IMG/VR virus record: IMGVR_UViG_3300003177_000005
Location: 55,560 to 119,559 of that record
Length of the DNA: 64,000 nt
Origin: a virus
Strand: one strand, 5' to 3'
The notes below the pieces were generated by a model that saw nothing but the letters and a program-made list of their open reading frames with translations, searched no databases and was not told the DNA's origin. Positions 6,023-32,306 of the stretch are shown piece by piece. The translations under genes and the position numbers were made by a program. Within the stretch, counting starts at the first letter, position 1. Every line of letters begins with the position of its first letter.

Positions 6023-6042
6023 TAAAAAAAAAGGGGGGGGGG
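6023..6042 (+). repeat. A10-G10 homopolymer tract at the RBS of ORF 6049
   Basis: A10 then G10, 6 nt before the ATG at 6049. Confidence 0.85.
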
Positions 6043-15338: not shown

Positions 15339-16112
15339 ATGGCATTAACAGCTATGTATATGTTACATAGAGTTTTACACAAAGATATCGATACCAGGAT
15401 ACCTGGCGGTGCAACTAATATAAAGATCAAGTACCATGGTAAGTGGTACAAACAAAAAGAGTTAAAAAAACTGTGGTCTATCAAAGGTAACAAAATTACC
15501 CATAGACCTAATTACAAGGTTATTAAACACCCTAAGAACATAAGACGGTTACATGTTCTAAAAGGGCTAGCAAAGATATATAAATATGGTGACAGAATAG
15601 ATAATGTATATGAAATTACTAAATTTATATTTAAAAAGGTAGACACATATAGTAAGTCTCACCACTATTTTAATAGGGGTAGACATAAACTATATAAAGT
15701 TTACAAAGAATTGGAGTACTTAAGAAGTCACTCCAAAAGGTATTCCTCGTCTTATAATAACTGGACAACTCAAATAATCAGGATTGGTCAGAGTTTCCAA
15801 CAAAATTATAATATGAGTATAAAAGAGTACGAACATTCTCGTGCAAATAGTAGGGACCGTCACTACTATACACACCAAGATATACGAGCTGTATCAAAAA
15901 GAGTGGCTCGTATAAAGAGAATGTTCAGAATAAAAGGTGACTGGTATTATGCTAAAACATATAATAAATACCATCACCATAGTGAGTATATAGCTCGTAT
16001 AGATAGAGCTAAAAAATATACTCATAAACGACACCATAAAAAACTAAACAAGATGTTATTATACCATCAGCGTAAACAGATGGAATACGCTGTTGCGTTG
16101 CGTATGGTATAG
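15339..16112 (+). CDS. Very basic His/Tyr/Lys/Arg-rich protein
   Basis: Own TATATT promoter (15291-15313), GGAGGAG RBS and terminator (16109-16151); 20 His in 257 aa. Confidence 0.8.
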   Translation: MALTAMYMLHRVLHKDIDTRIPGGATNIKIKYHGKWYKQKELKKLWSIKGNKITHRPNYKVIKHPKNIRRLHVLKGLAKIYKYGDRIDNVYEITKFIFKKVDTYSKSHHYFNRGRHKLYKVYKELEYLRSHSKRYSSSYNNWTTQIIRIGQSFQQNYNMSIKEYEHSRANSRDRHYYTHQDIRAVSKRVARIKRMFRIKGDWYYAKTYNKYHHHSEYIARIDRAKKYTHKRHHKKLNKMLLYHQRKQMEYAVALRMV

Positions 16113-16217
16113 AGGATTTGAAACTCCTCTATCTTGTTTTCTTTTTTTTTTGTTTAAATCTTGATAGTTTTATACATATATAATTTATCTGTAATTAAAA
16201 ATAAAAAAAGGATTAAT

Positions 16218-16727
16218 ATGATTCATTTAGATTTTTTCCAGGAAATGTTTACTCCTGGTAAAGTAACTGCAATTTTAGACAATGAGGATGGTTCTCAAAC
16301 AGCCTCATTAGTTCTAGATACAGGAGAGTTAGTAGAAGCTCCTGTGATTGATGGTCTTAGTATAGGTGTTACTTATCTAGTAAAAACTGAAGATATAGTA
16401 ACTGAAAGTGGTAAAGGTGTTGTCGAGAATCTTTACAAAGAAGATGCAAAAGAGATATATATTCTTAGCATCGACCTTAATCACAACACTAAGATAACAG
16501 ATTATCTTAAGGTAGAAAAAGTTGGTCTACCTGAAGATGAAAATACAGAGTATATAGAACTAAACGTAGATGTTTTTGATAGAGAGATTCATACCCCTAT
16601 AAATAAACTTCTACAAAAGCATCTTATTTATTCAGTATCTGTCCAAACAGATACAAAAGGAGATAATGATTACAATAAAGATTTGCTTGATAAAGCAGTA
16701 AAAGAGCAAATAAAGTTAGCAGCATAG
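16218..16727 (+). CDS. Hypothetical acidic protein ending in -LAA
   Basis: AAGGA RBS favours the ATG at 16218; promoter-like TATACATATATAATTTA upstream. Confidence 0.75.
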   Translation: MIHLDFFQEMFTPGKVTAILDNEDGSQTASLVLDTGELVEAPVIDGLSIGVTYLVKTEDIVTESGKGVVENLYKEDAKEIYILSIDLNHNTKITDYLKVEKVGLPEDENTEYIELNVDVFDREIHTPINKLLQKHLIYSVSVQTDTKGDNDYNKDLLDKAVKEQIKLAA

Positions 16728-16785
16728 TTTTTACTATGTTGTTAACATATTAATCATTTTATTTATATTATTTTTTTCTATTTAG

Positions 16786-17185
16786 TGATGGGCATCGTTT
16801 CCAGTCAGAATGATCAAGTAGGTATAATTTAGTTATATGCGAACCACATTCCCATACAGGAAAACTGCCCTAGTTTGTCTCGTAAGTTCTAGTAGTATAT
16901 ACAATATCTTTGCCTTTATGGTGTAAGTGCGATAATATATATGGGGGATGTTGGTAACGCAACATCTTGGTTCTAGAGGCAACTTACCTCGATAGTGTCC
17001 TAAGCTGAGCATCCTATAGGTCTTCGGATCTATAGGGTGTGAGGTGGATGGGTCAGAGGAAAGTTGTAGACGAATGCACCAGTAACTGCTGGTGAAATCC
17101 AATCAGAAGTCGTGGGGGAAGTGGGGGTACGATCAAAGTGGCCCAAAGGGCATCCGCTTAGACAGCAAGATATCGCTAGATATCA
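16786..17185 (+). ncRNA. Candidate large structured non-coding RNA (~400 nt), family unknown
   Basis: GC-rich island with no credible ORF; 13-bp stem with a cUUCGg loop (17010-17039), several other hairpins and long-range complementarities with G-U pairs. Confidence 0.65.
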
Positions 17186-17560
17186 ATCTATGTTATACTT
17201 ATATATAAGACATATATAATACTTAAACTAAAGAGATCTAATAATTTATATATAAACAAATAATAAACATATAAGATCTTAATAATATATAAAAGATAAA
17301 TATAATAAAGGTCTATCAGTAATAATCCTAAAGTTATGTCATAGACAGATATAGAGATCTTAATAATAAATAATAAATATAAAGATCTAAATAATTATAA
17401 CATATATACATAAATAATAAAATATATAATAAACTAATATATAGATAAGAAAATATCTTAATAATATAAAAGAGATCTATAATCATAGTTAATAAGACAT
17501 AAAGGTAGTAAATTTAGTTAATACTACTATAAGATATACTATGACATAGATAAGTAAAAG
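17186..17560. repeat. AT-rich array of AGATCT(W)AATAAT-like repeats, origin-like
   Basis: AGATCT at 17234, 17274, 17355, 17383 and 17473, plus ATATCT at 17453; A-rich top strand; no ORF. Confidence 0.65.
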
Positions 17561-17580
17561 AAAGTTAAAATAGAGTATAT

Positions 17581-17620
17581 TTTATCTATATATTATTTAG
17601 TTAGTAATGTCATATTACTA
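17581..17620 (+). promoter_or_regulatory. Putative early promoter with compensated hairpin TAGTAAT/ATTACTA
   Basis: TATCTATATATTATTTAGT-TAGTAAT-GTCAT-ATTACTA. Confidence 0.65.
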
Positions 17621-17649
17621 AAGTTAAAATTTAAATAAGGAGTTAAGTT

Positions 17650-18021
17650 ATGAAGGTTGAGTTAGTTAAGTTATCAGAGAGTATCAGTTCTGTTACTCCA
17701 TTTGAGTTCTTTATGTTAAAAGAGAAAATAACAGATAGTTCTCTTTATATTTTTAAAGAAGAGAACCTTGTCGATATCAAAAGTAAGAGGGGTAAAGTAT
17801 TAAATACTTCTTTTGTAGATATTAATTTAGGTATCAATGTAAATATTAGTTATTACGTTATGAAACAAGATGATATCTTTATTGTATATGTGATTGATTT
17901 TTTGGTTGAAAAGGTTTTAAGTGATGAGGTTTTTGTTAATAAGTTAGAGCTCGTTGAAAAAACATTAGTCAAATTTAAAGATGTCTATAATAAAGAAGAG
18001 TTTAAATTATTAGGGGTTTAA
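17650..18021 (+). CDS. Hypothetical protein; ORF 18079..18369 continues in the same frame past the TAA
   Basis: AAGGAG RBS; the frame after TAA 18019-18021 is open (EDNVYKKHLLKRLELNLFK..) to 18369. Confidence 0.6.
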   Translation: MKVELVKLSESISSVTPFEFFMLKEKITDSSLYIFKEENLVDIKSKRGKVLNTSFVDINLGINVNISYYVMKQDDIFIVYVIDFLVEKVLSDEVFVNKLELVEKTLVKFKDVYNKEEFKLLGV

Positions 18022-18409
18022 GAAGATAATGTCTATAAAAAACATCTTCTAAAAAGATTAGAGTTAAATTTATTTAAATTGTTGGTAAATCTTAACTATT
18101 CTGTTAATAGTAAATTAATCGAAATTAGAAGGTTTGAGATATTATTAGAATTATCTATGGTGAAAAGACCAATTTATAGAGAATTGATTTTTCCATTTAA
18201 GAACCCAGAACCAAAGCAGTCTTATGAGAAAGCGTCTATGTTTAAAAAAGGTCAAGAAGAAAAGAGACTTAAACTTGTAAATAACACTACTAAAGAAAGA
18301 TGGGAACGGTTAGAACAAGGAAATATAAAGCTGCGGGTAACACCAGAAATGAAAGACGAAACAAAGTAAAAGTATCTTTGTATCAAAAATTAAAAAACAG
18401 GAGAAAAAA

Positions 18410-19663
18410 ATGAAAAAAATTGAAGAGGTATTTCTAGAGTATATTAAGTATGGAACTAACATTGAGTTATTATTTGCTGTGGGTGACTTAGAAAGAGTAC
18501 CATTAATTAAAGTGAAATTTATAGAGGTAGAACTATTAATGCAGAACCATTGCAAAAAGAAGTATATGGTTAAAAAAGAGAAAATTGATATCAGAGCTAT
18601 TAAATGGCAACCCAACTTTAAAATAGAAACTGAAGTATCTAAATTAATTAAAGAAAAAACAACTAAAATCAAAGATGTTTTAGGTGTTAAAATCGAAATT
18701 CAAGTAAACTCTTCTTTAAGAAATACATTCATAGCAATCTTAAATAAGGATGATGATGAAAGAAAAATGTGGTTAAATATTAAGGAAATGTTTATCGAAG
18801 ATGGTAAACTAGATAAAAACGAAAAGTTAAACTATTTAAGTATTATGGATCCATTGGATATTCATAGTGGTGCCAAAAACGAAAAGTTAAGAGATGTTAT
18901 CTTATATAAACCGTTTTCTAAGAAAGATAAGAAAAAGTCGAAAATAGATAAAGTTGCTGTTAAGATAGAAAAACCTCAAGCAACATCAGTTTATAAAAAC
19001 CTTATGAATCTAATAAAAGAACAAGCAGGTAAGAAAAGTGAAAAGGAAAAATCTAATAGACTTAAAGATATGATTACAGAAACCCTTGGTCATCTTTTTA
19101 ATGGAAACGAAATTCATATGATTGTTCCTAAAACAAATCAATATAAAGATGATTTTATTAATGACTTAGTTAAAAATACAGTAGCACTAAATGATATCAG
19201 TAATGATGTTCCAATTAGCGAGAATGATAGAGAGAATACTTTTATCGATATCGAAAAAGGTTTAAAAGAAAACGGTATTGACTCTTTAGATAACAATAGT
19301 ACCTACCAAGATCCATTTCGATCAAAAGAAAAGGATACTATTAAGGATGTGTGTAGTTTCTCGTTTTATGTAATCTTCCCTAACGGGCAAAATGAGTTTT
19401 TCGTTTTAAATAAGATAAACAAGGAGATGTTAATCGTAAAGGTTATTTCGTCAACTAAGTTAAGGGTAATGACCTTAGGTACTTTGGAGAGTCTATCTAA
19501 AATGACTCAAATAGATCTTAATAAAATATCTAAAATAACATTACCTATGGAGATTTTGGAATATACTCTAAAAAACTATATTTGGGAACATCAAAAAACC
19601 AACCTTCTTATTAATCCTCATGAACAAGAGTTATTTAATCATCTGGTTGAATTATATAGTTAG
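18410..19663 (+). CDS. Hypothetical protein (417 aa)
   Basis: Long ORF, AGGAG RBS. Confidence 0.8.
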   Translation: MKKIEEVFLEYIKYGTNIELLFAVGDLERVPLIKVKFIEVELLMQNHCKKKYMVKKEKIDIRAIKWQPNFKIETEVSKLIKEKTTKIKDVLGVKIEIQVNSSLRNTFIAILNKDDDERKMWLNIKEMFIEDGKLDKNEKLNYLSIMDPLDIHSGAKNEKLRDVILYKPFSKKDKKKSKIDKVAVKIEKPQATSVYKNLMNLIKEQAGKKSEKEKSNRLKDMITETLGHLFNGNEIHMIVPKTNQYKDDFINDLVKNTVALNDISNDVPISENDRENTFIDIEKGLKENGIDSLDNNSTYQDPFRSKEKDTIKDVCSFSFYVIFPNGQNEFFVLNKINKEMLIVKVISSTKLRVMTLGTLESLSKMTQIDLNKISKITLPMEILEYTLKNYIWEHQKTNLLINPHEQELFNHLVELYS

Positions 19664-28232: not shown

Positions 28233-29033
28233 ATGGAAAAAGTTATACCAGGATATGAGAATTATGTTATAGACGAGAATGCTAATGTTTATTCTATAAA
28301 ATTTACTCATTATTCTCATGGGATTAAAACAGTTAGAGATCGACGAAAAAAATTAATACACACTTGTATAAAAGGTGAGTATTGTTATGTATCATTAATG
28401 AAAGATAGTAAGAAGAAAAACTTTAAATTACATCATTTGATGGCAAAAGTATTTATAACAAAACCTAAAGGTGATAATTGGATTATAGCACATTTAGATA
28501 ATAATAAACATAATAATAAATTGAATAACTTAAAATATATTAAACAATCAGAAAATATACAATCAGCTTATGACGATGGATTAATAAAAGGTAAAGGTAA
28601 TGGTAAGATTAAGGTTTTAGTAATAAAAGGAAATGATAAAGAATTTCCTAATTTTAAGAAGGAACAAAATGATTTTTACTCAAAGTTAGAATCAATTGTT
28701 AAAAAAACTGGTTTTAATCTTGACTTTATGAATCCTAATAAAGAAATAAAAAATATTAATATGTTAAAAGATTATCCGATTATTATAACATTTTCAAAAG
28801 GGTGCGAAAAACAAAAGACGATAAGAGAATTATCAAGTGAAATTTACATTATAGGTATAGGATGTCATAAAGATGAGAAAATTAAAAATGTTTTTTATTT
28901 AATAAATAGTTGTGATAAAACAGTTAATCAAATTTTAACAGATGAAAGTTTGAACTGTCATTATACAGTAACTAAAACAATGGAAAAAGATTTAACTGAT
29001 CAACTACTCAAATTGAAAGATAAATTAAATTAG
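28233..29033 (+). CDS. NUMOD4/HNH homing endonuclease with an extra C-terminal domain
   Basis: IPGYENYVIDENANVYS (NUMOD4-like), LHHLMAKVFI, IAHLDNNKHNNKLNNLKY..SEN (HNH). Confidence 0.8.
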   Translation: MEKVIPGYENYVIDENANVYSIKFTHYSHGIKTVRDRRKKLIHTCIKGEYCYVSLMKDSKKKNFKLHHLMAKVFITKPKGDNWIIAHLDNNKHNNKLNNLKYIKQSENIQSAYDDGLIKGKGNGKIKVLVIKGNDKEFPNFKKEQNDFYSKLESIVKKTGFNLDFMNPNKEIKNINMLKDYPIIITFSKGCEKQKTIRELSSEIYIIGIGCHKDEKIKNVFYLINSCDKTVNQILTDESLNCHYTVTKTMEKDLTDQLLKLKDKLN

Positions 29034-29140
29034 TTATGTCTCTTCTACACTCTAATGTTATTGTCACTAGTGTAGAGTTTTATAATTATAAAAAAACTAA
29101 ATAACTCTATTAATTGAGGATGGTATTAACCCCACCATCC

Positions 29141-29200
29141 TTACTCCGTAACTAAAGACAATTTCTTCTCCGATACTGTTAAAAAAGTTACACCGAACAT
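29141..29200 (-). CDS. Possible 19-aa antisense peptide MFGVTFLTVSEKKLSLVTE
   Basis: AAGGAG 5 nt before the ATG on the minus strand; hairpin (29118-29140) directly after the stop. Confidence 0.35.
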   Translation of the reverse strand: MFGVTFLTVSEKKLSLVTE

Positions 29201-29339
29201 TTTAACTCCTTTTCAAAATGTTTATCCGATATCTATTTTTTTCTCTGTAAACTGGTCAAATACCAGTTTACAGAGTTTATCTTTTTTTTACATCTGACCA
29301 CTCTATTTAAATGACAGAAAATAATAAAAAGGGAAAAGA

Positions 29340-32306
29340 ATGATTATCAATGTTACAAAAATAGATGGACGAAAAGAACCACTAAATATAGAGAAGATAA
29401 GAAAATATACTAAAGGGTATGTACCAGGTAATGATGAAAATATGGTAGCTGAATTAGAATCTGATGTTCAATTACATTTTAAAGATGGGATGAGCACAGC
29501 TGATATACATGATGCCCTTATACGAGAGTGTACACTTAAAACTGATGTTGGTAAATTAGAGTGGGATAAATTTGCTAAAAACTTATTTGTTTCCAATTTT
29601 AAATATAGACTAAAAAAAGATAAAAATATATTTGATCTTAAATCTTATATAAGAGAAAATAAAGATAGACTTAATGATCGTATACTTTCATATACTGAAG
29701 ACGAACTAAATCTTTTAAAAGAAGAGATTAATGAGGATAATGACTTTAAAGAATTTACTTATAATGGTATCGTTACATTACTTAATTCTTGGGCAAATAA
29801 AAAAGGCGATAGTATTATAGAAACTCCTCAATATCTTTATATGGGTTTAGCTATGTTTTTGGCTAGTAATGAAGAAAGAGATAGTTGGGTTTATTGGTCT
29901 AAGAAGTTCTATTATGTTTTAACTAATCATTATGCATTAATGGGTACACCAACAATGAGTAAATCTAGATCAAAAAGACCACAGTTATCTTCTTGTTATG
30001 TTGGTGCAACTCCAGATAGTATCGAAGGTATAATGGATGCTAATAAGACTATCTCTATACTATCAAAGTTTGGTGGTGGTATCGGTTGGGATTTTTCTCC
30101 AATACGAAGTGTCGCATCTGAGATAGATGGTTATAAAGGTGTAGCTGGTGGTTCAATTCCATTCCTAAAAATAACTAATGATGTAACATTAGCTGTAGAC
30201 CAATTAGGTTGTGTGGTTAAGGATAGTTATGTAAAAGTTATAGATGATATTAATGAAATTAATGAAAGAATTATTCCTATTTATAAACTAAAAAAGGGTG
30301 ATTTGATTAAATCTTACAATCATACTTTAAATAAAGTTGAATATCAAACAGTATTAGAAACATATGACTTAACAGTAGAGATTAAGGACCAGGTTTTAAT
30401 AGTATTCGAAAATGGCGTAAAATATTTAACATCTGCTTGGCACCCTGTTCCAAAATTGATAGATGGTGAATATAAATATGTTCGAGCTGATAGTATAAAA
30501 GAAAATGATATAACTGTTGGTGATAATGGTGAAGAGTTAAAAATTGTTAGTGTTAAACACGGTGAAGAAACCGGTAGTAAAACAAATGTATTTTTCGATA
30601 TTACAGTTAAGGATAATAATAACTATTTCTGCGCATCGTTTAATTCGGATAATAATATTTTCGGACTTATTCACAATACTAGACCAGGGGCCTTAGCACC
30701 ATATCAAAATACTTGTTCATTAGAAATTATTGATTTCCTAGATTTAAGAAAAAATTCTGGTGAAGAGCGTAGAAGAGCACACGATTTATTTTTAGCAGTT
30801 ATTTTAGAAGATAGATTTATGGAAGCTGTGGAAAATGATGAAGAGTGGTTGTTAGTAGACCAATATGAAGTTCCTGAATTAATACACGCACAATCTGGTG
30901 AAGTGTTTAAAAGTAAATATGAAGAAACTTTACAAAGATTTAGAAACAATGAGTTAAAATTAGGTAAATTAGTTAGTGCTAAAGATTTATGGAAAAAGAT
31001 AATAAGAAGTTATTATGAAACTGGTTATCCATTCTTATTCTTTAAGACAACAGCTAATGAAAAACATATGGGAACTGGAACTATCCGTAGTAGTAACCTT
31101 TGCACAGAGATTTTTCAAGCTACAGCTCCTGCCGAATATGATATGGTTGTTTATATGGAGACAGGAAATAAGATAGAATCTATCTATATACCTAGAACAT
31201 CATTAATCAAAATAGGTGTAAGAAATAAAGATGGTAAGATTAAATATAGATCAGGAACAATTAAGGAGATAACAGCTGCAACAGACTCAGTATATGTTAC
31301 ACTTAAAAATCCAAATGATAAAGAAGATGAATGGACAGGTCAAGAGTTTATTTTAGAGAATATTCTAAATGCAGAGTTAGTTAAAGATAAAGTTTCCGAA
31401 GAGTTAGCAGTTTGTAACTTATCATCTATTAACTTAGCTAAGATAAATACAAAAGAAGCTTTTGAAGAAATTATACCTATTGTTGTTCGTATGTTAGATA
31501 ATGTTATTGATCTGAACTTCTATCCAGTATTAGCAGCGGCTCTAACTAATAAACGAACTAGAGCTATTGGCTTGGGTGTAGCTGGTGAAAATGAACTAAT
31601 AGCAGGTAAGGGTATACATTATGGTTCAGAAGAGCATAAAGAGTTCGCTAATGAGCTTTATGAGATGTTTGCATATTACACAATAAAAGCTAGTGTTGAC
31701 TTAGCTAAAGAAAAAGGTAAGGCACCTGCTTTTGATGATTCTAAATGGGCTAACTTTGATCATAAAGAGTATAGTACATTAGCATCAAAGATTCCTGAAG
31801 ATGAATTAGATATACCTAAACCAAAATACTTTATGGACTGGGTAGGTTTAGAAAAAGATATTAGAGAGAATGGTATGAGAAATATTTATCTTATGGCTAT
31901 TGCTCCTACTAGTACTATTGCTAGTGTACTTGGAACAACAAGCAGTATCTCACCAATAATTAATAAGTTAACATTTGAATCTAATTCTAAAGATCATCTA
32001 TTGGCTAAGTACCCATCTAACTTATCAGCTGAAACTTGGAATTTCTATACAAATGGATTTAAGATAGATCAAATCGAAGCTATAAAGGTTAACGCTATTC
32101 GTCAGCGATGGATTGACCAAGGTATATCTTATAATGTTAGAGTATTACAAGGAGATGTAACTGGAACAGACTTACATAATATCTATATGACAGCTTGGAA
32201 ATATGGTATGAAATCAACATACTATTTAAATAGTATACCAAAAGAAAAAGAAGAGGAGAAACAAAAATATAAAGAAGATCAAATAACTTGTGTAAACTGT
32301 GAATAA
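29340..32306 (+). CDS. nrdA: Class Ia ribonucleotide reductase alpha subunit with intein
   Basis: ATP cone, TPTM, QLSSC, GGGIG, SNLCTEI, CNLSSINL, RAIGLG, IAPTS, KSTYY, C-terminal CVNC. Confidence 0.97.
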   Translation: MIINVTKIDGRKEPLNIEKIRKYTKGYVPGNDENMVAELESDVQLHFKDGMSTADIHDALIRECTLKTDVGKLEWDKFAKNLFVSNFKYRLKKDKNIFDLKSYIRENKDRLNDRILSYTEDELNLLKEEINEDNDFKEFTYNGIVTLLNSWANKKGDSIIETPQYLYMGLAMFLASNEERDSWVYWSKKFYYVLTNHYALMGTPTMSKSRSKRPQLSSCYVGATPDSIEGIMDANKTISILSKFGGGIGWDFSPIRSVASEIDGYKGVAGGSIPFLKITNDVTLAVDQLGCVVKDSYVKVIDDINEINERIIPIYKLKKGDLIKSYNHTLNKVEYQTVLETYDLTVEIKDQVLIVFENGVKYLTSAWHPVPKLIDGEYKYVRADSIKENDITVGDNGEELKIVSVKHGEETGSKTNVFFDITVKDNNNYFCASFNSDNNIFGLIHNTRPGALAPYQNTCSLEIIDFLDLRKNSGEERRRAHDLFLAVILEDRFMEAVENDEEWLLVDQYEVPELIHAQSGEVFKSKYEETLQRFRNNELKLGKLVSAKDLWKKIIRSYYETGYPFLFFKTTANEKHMGTGTIRSSNLCTEIFQATAPAEYDMVVYMETGNKIESIYIPRTSLIKIGVRNKDGKIKYRSGTIKEITAATDSVYVTLKNPNDKEDEWTGQEFILENILNAELVKDKVSEELAVCNLSSINLAKINTKEAFEEIIPIVVRMLDNVIDLNFYPVLAAALTNKRTRAIGLGVAGENELIAGKGIHYGSEEHKEFANELYEMFAYYTIKASVDLAKEKGKAPAFDDSKWANFDHKEYSTLASKIPEDELDIPKPKYFMDWVGLEKDIRENGMRNIYLMAIAPTSTIASVLGTTSSISPIINKLTFESNSKDHLLAKYPSNLSAETWNFYTNGFKIDQIEAIKVNAIRQRWIDQGISYNVRVLQGDVTGTDLHNIYMTAWKYGMKSTYYLNSIPKEKEEEKQKYKEDQITCVNCE
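30210..30677 (+). mobile_element. Mini-intein (156 aa) in NrdA
   Basis: Inserted between VDQLG and TRPGA; starts with Cys (CVVKDS), block B TSAWHP, block F FDITVKDNNNY, ends His-Asn before Thr; no endonuclease domain. Confidence 0.92.

Follow-up and report, generated by a model that had tools for sequence, protein, structure and literature searches.

Where does a nucleus-forming jumbo phage begin to replicate its genome? No mapped origin for phiKZ-like or nucleus-forming phages was found in the papers searched, a 2026 review included (PMC13282480), in agreement with the preliminary description of the DNA studied here, which knew of none; another study gives only software predictions of origins, of low reliability (PMC12390700). 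The question is raised by a locus near 17.2 kb of a 64,000-nucleotide window, namely bases 55560–119559 of the 119,559-bp IMG/VR virus contig IMGVR_UViG_3300003177_000005, in which a GC-rich block that may encode a structured RNA with a G5-N4-G5 tract gives way to an AT-rich stretch carrying an array of six short boxes built on AGATCT or, once, ATATCT. Coordinates are those of the window, negative values lying upstream of it, and, the contig being rated 46% complete, contig-wide counts and the word unique cover this half of the genome only. The preliminary description had joined the RNA, the G tract and the array in a single RNA-primed origin module. We arrive at a different arrangement, in which the G tract with its folded RNA and the 370-bp array would be two separate things. 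The array is real, unique and phased, it occupies the contig's least stable DNA, and it probably binds a protein in a methylation-sensitive manner; its likeliest function, put forward tentatively, is that of an origin-type site for the initiation of replication, composed of boxes and an unwinding element (rough probability 0.35, which takes in a small share for an RNA-primed form).

The box array and its AT-rich setting

The five copies of AGATCT (at 17234, 17274, 17355, 17383 and 17473) and the one ATATCT (17453) that first drew attention to the locus are all in place, spanning 17234–17478, and the remark that each is followed by an AATAAT-like sequence is borne out as well, AATAAT standing at +0 or +1 after five of the six sites, against 5% of positions in 17190–17560, and ATAATC after the sixth. 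Gathered within 245 bp, the five AGATCT make up one third of those in the window (5/15) and 5/23 of those in the contig, and a count of at least five was reached in one of 5000 dinucleotide-preserving shuffles of 17190–17560. With their flanks, the six boxes follow the consensus (A/G)AGATCT(W)AATAAT, all in one orientation (Table 1). When a matrix built on them was used to scan both strands of the 119.6 kb, the boxes scored 16.2–24.6 bits and the next best matches 13.3 and 13.0 bits; the extended box array is one unique locus of the contig and no general signal. Of the 18 AGATCT sites outside the array, 2 share the flank of the boxes; these single AGATCT(W)AATAA sites, at 19513 and 26623, precede the nearest downstream gene starts by about 160 and 60 nt.

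Counted from the first box, the box starts lie at 0, 40, 121, 149, 219 and 239, each at most 1 bp from a multiple of 10 (0, 0, 1, 9, 9 and 9 modulo 10), so that all boxes come to lie on one face of the helix. The resultant of this phasing is 0.93 at 9.95 bp and was equalled by 45 of 5000 random six-site sets when periods of 9.8–10.8 bp were scanned; the AA/TT periodicity of the array has its maximum at 10.0 bp as well, ranking 15th among 322 windows.

The surrounding DNA is as A-skewed as had been described (A 195, T 118, G 31 and C 27 in 17190–17560), and its lack of open reading frames (ORFs) over some 370 bp is likewise confirmed, the longest open stretch in any frame of 17170–17650 being 68 codons. 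The sole listed ORF within it, of 50 aa, lies on the minus strand (17334–17486), and a PHROG search with this and an 89-aa minus-strand ORF gave no match. In windows of 100, 200, 300 and 400 nt, no part of the 119.6-kb contig is poorer in GC than the array (8%, 13%, 14% and 14.7%), while the block just 5' of it is the highest-GC stretch at 200, 300 and 400 nt (51% at 200 nt), and both composition extremes of the contig adjoin at about 17190. According to the information profile, the conserved box positions are the rare letters G and C in DNA of 84% A+T, and the flanks have diverged. Tandem Repeats Finder and a repeat scan further report overlapping imperfect repeats across the array, with periods of 11–31 nt and units 72–90% alike.

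Across the contig GATC is under-represented (166 found, 301 expected), as is AGATCT (23 found, 38.9 expected from base composition), whereas the array holds the contig maximum of GATC density, with up to 5 per 300-nt window. Lying 33 kb upstream of the array, a gene at L025:3336–4166 codes for a complete N6-adenine methylase of the Dam family (TIGR00571, 3.9e-87; PF02086, 6.7e-51); among solved chains DpnM (2e-69) and that of E. coli Dam (1.5e-41) come closest to it, and both are GATC enzymes. Since GATC is avoided, the methylase is probably a GATC enzyme and five GATC have been kept in 245 bp of DNA otherwise poor in G and C, the phage most simply uses these sites; because five of the six boxes contain GATC, the phage's own Dam-family methylase probably modulates how far they are occupied. 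The frame of the methylase runs on, in frame, after the TGA stop of a RecJ-like gene (L025:3333–3460, outside the window at about -16.2 kb), and the conserved N-terminal methylase motifs precede any ATG, GTG or TTG start, which suggests an unusual start codon, read-through or coupling.

From its sequence we infer protein binding, methylation sensitivity and a replication role for the array. One sequence-specific protein would bind the boxes and assemble along one face of the DNA, and, once bound, would open or mark the AT-rich DNA.

Table 1. Features of the locus, in coordinates of the window
Feature	Position	Strand	Sequence	Basis or score
Promoter-like motif before the RNA candidate	16823..16831	+	TATAATTTA	putative promoter
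GC-rich structured RNA candidate, ends approximate	16836..17185	+		GC maximum and folding
Proposed 5' strand of the RNA closing helix	16844..16853	+	CCACAUUCCC	pairing probability
G5-N4-G5 tract	17114..17127	+	GGGGGAAGTGGGGG	core GGGAAGUGG (17116-17124), proposed 3' strand of the closing helix
Palindrome or hairpin	17169..17184	+	GATATC-GCTA-GATATC	3' edge of the GC-rich block
AT-rich, A-skewed, ORF-free stretch with box array	17190..17560	.		composition
Box 1	17232..17245	+	AGAGATCTAATAAT	20.5 bits
Box 2	17272..17286	+	TAAGATCTTAATAAT	21.1 bits
Box 3	17353..17367	+	AGAGATCTTAATAAT	24.6 bits
Box 4	17381..17395	+	AAAGATCTAAATAAT	22.6 bits
Box 5, variant without GATC	17451..17465	+	AAATATCTTAATAAT	19.6 bits
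Box 6, weakest	17471..17484	+	AGAGATCTATAATC	16.2 bits
Early-type promoter and leader hairpin, before gene 17650-18021	17580..17621	+	TTTTATCTATATATTATTTA	29.2 bits, 10-copy matrix

The putative folded RNA and its G tract

The GC-rich block next to the array is a candidate for a structured RNA, with folding z-scores of -2.55 on the + strand and -1.17 on the - strand, and it includes a UUCG-capped hairpin at 17013–17038. Rfam returned no match at gathering score in the window or the rest of the contig, only chance-level matches appearing at E values up to 10, and ARAGORN found no tRNA or tmRNA at the candidate. No U-tract terminator follows the palindrome at its 3' edge, nor was any terminator-like site found in 16600–17800, so transcripts could enter the array.

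The tract GGGGGAAGTGGGGG is present as the preliminary description gave it, and a role for it within the RNA can be proposed. In the base-pair probabilities of 16836–17190, the favoured partner of its core GGGAAGUGG is CCACAUUCCC, with which it forms a 9-bp helix with one bulge (p 0.45–0.62), and the minimum-energy fold of 16836–17135 is closed by this same helix. Of the 30-nt windows across 16700–17650, the one at the 5' end of the RNA forms the strongest duplex with the G tract (-18.5 kcal/mol), a value that 37 of 3985 contig windows matched or bettered. Furthermore, CCACAUUCCC starts 8 nt (8–18 nt span) past the likely transcript start from the TATAATTTA motif. On these models, the best explanation for the G tract is that it supplies the 3' strand of a closing helix that ties the RNA ends together, and its pairing with CCACAUUCCC would close a folded RNA body of about 300 nt. 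Given such an ordinary structural role, an RNA-DNA hybrid is no longer needed to account for the tract, although the pairing does not exclude one.

Runs of at least five G are rare, with eight on the + strand of the contig, and three of the eight fall inside the RNA candidate. Within 17100–17160 the two G5 runs are followed by a GG after 12 nt and a GGG 6 nt further, no four-run motif being present; having only two G runs, the tract forms no canonical quadruplex motif, and from the split G5 runs only a two-layer quadruplex is conceivable. The longest G homopolymer of the contig, ten G, lies elsewhere, at 6033–6042, where the crude gene call has no ATG-started ORF.

Apart from their adjacency, no result joins RNA, G tract and array into the single RNA-primed module that had been envisaged for them, and the predicted pairing of the G tract within its own RNA speaks against such a module.

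Possible functions of the array

Several known origins help to place the array. E. coli oriC contains three AT-rich 13-mers that begin with GATCT and is controlled by Dam and SeqA. The array is like it in its easily melted AT-rich DNA, its short AT-rich repeats, a GATC density far above that of the genome and the presence of a Dam-family methylase, and it differs in that no DnaA boxes or DnaA are evident here, that its boxes extend across 240 bp with irregular spacing in multiples of 10 bp, and that this phage family replicates inside a protein shell. Iterons, the repeats of another origin type, are 17–22 bp long. With the iteron origins (lambda ori, P1 oriR and plasmid oriV) the array shares at least three direct repeats in one orientation and on one helical face, beside or inside AT-rich DNA; unlike theirs, its boxes measure 13–15 bp, with no adjacent initiator gene recognised and no skew switch. 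The original suggestion of an iteron and unwinding array holds in that the repeats are real, non-random and unique to this site, where the DNA of the contig melts most easily, but lacks the initiator gene and the skew switch. ColE1 RNA II is a folded primer RNA with a G-rich stretch that is processed by RNase H, and the RNA candidate, several hundred nucleotides long, likewise folds, has a G-rich segment and precedes a possible start site; here, in contrast, the G tract is predicted to pair with the beginning of its own RNA, and no RNase H site, antisense RNA or plasmid-type origin is evident. In more general terms, unwinding elements are described as AT-rich and made up of AT-rich units that recur, and E. 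coli oriC has an excess of GATC, clustered in its AT-rich unwinding DNA (PMC4285127). In the T4 origins oriF and oriG, a promoter and an A+T-rich unwinding element together span about 100 bp, and their function does not depend on a specific sequence (PMC3016281). The locus resembles them in its A+T-rich DNA downstream of a putative promoter whose -10 motif is of the sigma-70 kind, but it lacks their defining geometry, as some 350 nt of a stably folded RNA gene separate the two, and the phage's AT-rich DNA bears specific boxes.

A number of results weigh against an origin-type site. Cumulative GC and AT skew, which had been proposed as a check, does not turn at 17.2 kb; over the contig it climbs without a break between about -3.5 kb and +45 kb, in step with a long series of genes on the + strand. 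For + strand genes, the GC skew at third positions amounts to 0.163 +/- 0.022 to the left (25 genes) and 0.206 +/- 0.032 to the right (26 genes), a difference in the direction expected for an origin but within error and not significant. The phasing of the boxes holds only near 10.0 bp, the resultant falling to 0.21 at 10.2 bp and 0.40 at 10.5 bp, their spacing is irregular (40, 81, 28, 70 and 20 bp), and they are shorter than classical iterons. No initiator-like neighbour was recognised, the genes at 15339–16112, 16218–16727, 17650–18021, 18079–18369 and 18410–19663 having no Pfam or PHROG match. The GATC specificity of the methylase is read from its relatives, no search yielded a usable relative of the locus and hence evidence of conservation, and with 46% of the genome covered the uniqueness of the array holds for this half. 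Finally, on the side of the RNA, composition accounts for part of the score of the closing helix, since 158 of 2000 shuffles of the 5' segment bind equally well.

Alternatively, a DNA-binding protein of the phage or its host might use the boxes as operators, either to control the early operon that starts at 17580–17650 or to insulate it from the RNA gene, and the array would then have no role in replication. We regard this as possible but doubtful. The array does lie between the RNA gene and a strong early-type promoter, two single sites of the same kind precede gene starts elsewhere, and a borderline minus-strand early-promoter-like site occurs at 17444 (14.8 bits); however, no comparable array accompanies any of the contig's nine other early-type promoter copies, the boxes lie 100–350 bp upstream of the promoter without overlapping it, and six phased boxes over 240 bp in the contig's least stable DNA exceed the usual operator. 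That the stretch is a non-functional AT-rich spacer, its boxes being remnants of decayed local duplications in low-complexity DNA, would fit the overlapping imperfect repeats, and no relatives were found that could reveal purifying selection. Such decay is hard to reconcile with the rare G and C being the kept positions amid diverged flanks, with the avoidance of GATC elsewhere in the genome, with the one orientation and 10-bp phase of the sites or with an AGATCT count reached in a single one of the 5000 local shuffles, and we think this reading unlikely. Phage P1 pac, a terminase recognition site regulated by Dam methylation, offers a further model, that of a packaging or other DNA-handling site, for instance a terminase recognition site under Dam control. 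A cluster of GATC hexamers at a locus unique in the contig, together with the phage's own Dam-family methylase, would suit it, and relatives are thought to package by headful (PMC12390700), but the terminase large-subunit gene is about 40 kb off, whereas pac sites are usually at or near terminase genes, and the public runs, which consist of assembled contigs only, record no pile-up of read ends, which leaves a packaging function rather improbable.

The RNA-primed origin is a special case of the origin-type site: the structured RNA would be transcribed into the array, the G tract would anchor a persistent RNA-DNA hybrid, and a processed 3' end would prime synthesis. The promoter-like TATAATTTA at 16823, the lack of terminator-like sites up to 17800 and the concentration of rare G runs in the RNA candidate all agree with it. 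Against it stand the 5' end of the RNA itself, which as the best partner of the G tract would compete with hybrid formation, and the presence of only two G runs with no four-run quadruplex motif; a transcript of the array, moreover, would be A- and U-rich, and A/U-rich RNA-DNA hybrids are no stronger than the DNA duplex. In both samples with matching public sequence, contigs match from 17170 on and carry other sequence before it, a weak hint of an array without the RNA. T4 origins, whose R-loops arise in an A+T-rich unwinding element downstream of a promoter, would provide a precedent, but the minimal ones measure about 100 bp (PMC3016281), and the AT-rich DNA here begins about 360 nt past the promoter-like motif, with a stable fold between. 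According to a 2026 preprint, the family is without primase and clamp, chimalliviruses have an RNase H built into the polymerase, and its authors speculate that RNA-DNA hybrids may be replication start sites (10.64898/2026.10.01.755736). No primase, RNase H (111 ORFs of at least 90 codons) or replicative helicase was recognised in the covered half of the genome, although at 46% completeness this absence says little. All told, we consider it very unlikely that the locus is both the first candidate replication origin of a nucleus-forming (chimallivirus-like) jumbo phage and primed by a transcript, that of a dedicated structured RNA running from its own promoter into a Dam-marked array in the most easily melted DNA.

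Promoters, neighbouring genes and relatives of the phage

The motif TATAATTTA has ten exact copies in the contig, including those at 16179, 16823 and 34306 of the window, several of them directly upstream of gene starts, and may represent a second promoter class. The early-type motif, TTTTATC(C/T)ATATATT(A/T)TT, was derived from the contig itself and also has ten copies, all on the + strand (window 8315, 14558, 15296, 17586, 22971, -39942, -39169, -10794, -8195 and -6234), mostly trailed by a leader hairpin, TAGTGA-N6-TCACTA, and by TAGTTGTCT. Because early promoters of jumbo phages are described as conserved AT-rich motifs (PMC7598289), a promoter role can be proposed for it, and with its shared 5' leader it probably serves the virion RNA polymerase of this lineage; the copy at 17580–17599 would drive gene 17650–18021. 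The boxes themselves are no early promoters: on the + strand of the array no score exceeds 0.9 bits, and the true copies reach 14.5–30.7 bits when each is left out in turn. The borderline minus-strand site mentioned above (17425–17452) points leftward via boxes 1–4, antisense to the RNA gene. A scan for sigma-70-type promoters showed no enrichment (7 found, 8.3 expected).

In large protein searches the proteins encoded on either side of the locus are orphans, matching themselves and, in one case, weak repetitive sequences, and the Atlas models of two neighbour proteins are poor, with no usable look-alike. Further off, a 246-aa protein (1175–1915) has a C-terminal HU/IHF-type DNA-binding domain (PF00216, 7.8e-09) and is a possible architectural DNA-binding protein. 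The gene for the ribonucleotide reductase small subunit is split in two with an HNH endonuclease ORF in between (L025:14738–16444, minus strand, outside the window at about -4.8 to -3.1 kb), an arrangement suggestive of an intron that carries a homing endonuclease; a group I intron was not matched there by Rfam. The large subunit of the same enzyme (988 aa, in the region 28233–32306) has family matches at residues 1–290 and 446–988 with an unmatched insert between them, and an HNH endonuclease gene (28233–29033) lies directly upstream of it.

The source is an uncultured, very divergent phiKZ-like jumbo phage, judging by what the contig, of 27% G+C, encodes: split multisubunit RNA polymerase genes, a PhuZ-like tubulin, phiKZ-type sheath and vertex proteins and two divergent family-B DNA polymerase pieces. 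Its closest cultured phages share 26.9% identity in one RNA polymerase subunit (286 records matched, all below 60%), and the best metagenomic relative, on a 9.5-kb contig, 34% protein identity, which makes the lineage, as far as these sequences tell, nearly a singleton. Genome-wide recoding of stop codons was rejected as unlikely, TAA, TAG and TGA terminating 85, 25 and 16 ORFs, respectively, with short read-through extensions.

The searches for relatives of the locus covered several routes. A blastn search of 16700–17700 against 50,697 phage records gave no match, array patterns of 38 and 31 nt had none in viral and metagenome contigs, and no related loci were found via the 417-aa neighbour or the RNA polymerase subunit. 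Matches to a 16-mer of the G tract in eight viral contigs are due to chance, with no similarity past 16–18 nt, and matches to a two-box pattern in nine viral contigs are unrelated tandem or coding repeats, several of them in giant-virus bins.

Four public DNA runs, from one study and two samples and available as assembled contigs only, contain the sequence, with no variant letters across 16000–18500; no RNA run with it was found. In both samples some run contigs match from 17170 on only, with different sequence before, and in one sample some match up to 16781 only, with different sequence after; these two breaks coincide with the edges of the GC-rich RNA block. They could reflect a co-occurring variant in which the RNA cassette has been exchanged and the array kept, or unrelated AT-rich contigs that stop at the GC-rich block. 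The junction strings from the ends at 16781 and 17170 are absent from the contig itself and from viral and metagenome contigs.

For the nucleus-forming phages, the array and the new folded RNA together provide a concrete place and a motif for the question of where replication starts. Should the very unlikely transcript-primed form prove true, it would explain how replication starts in a family without a recognisable primase. Even if the array is no origin, it would be a specific protein-binding site that retains GATC in a genome otherwise avoiding it.

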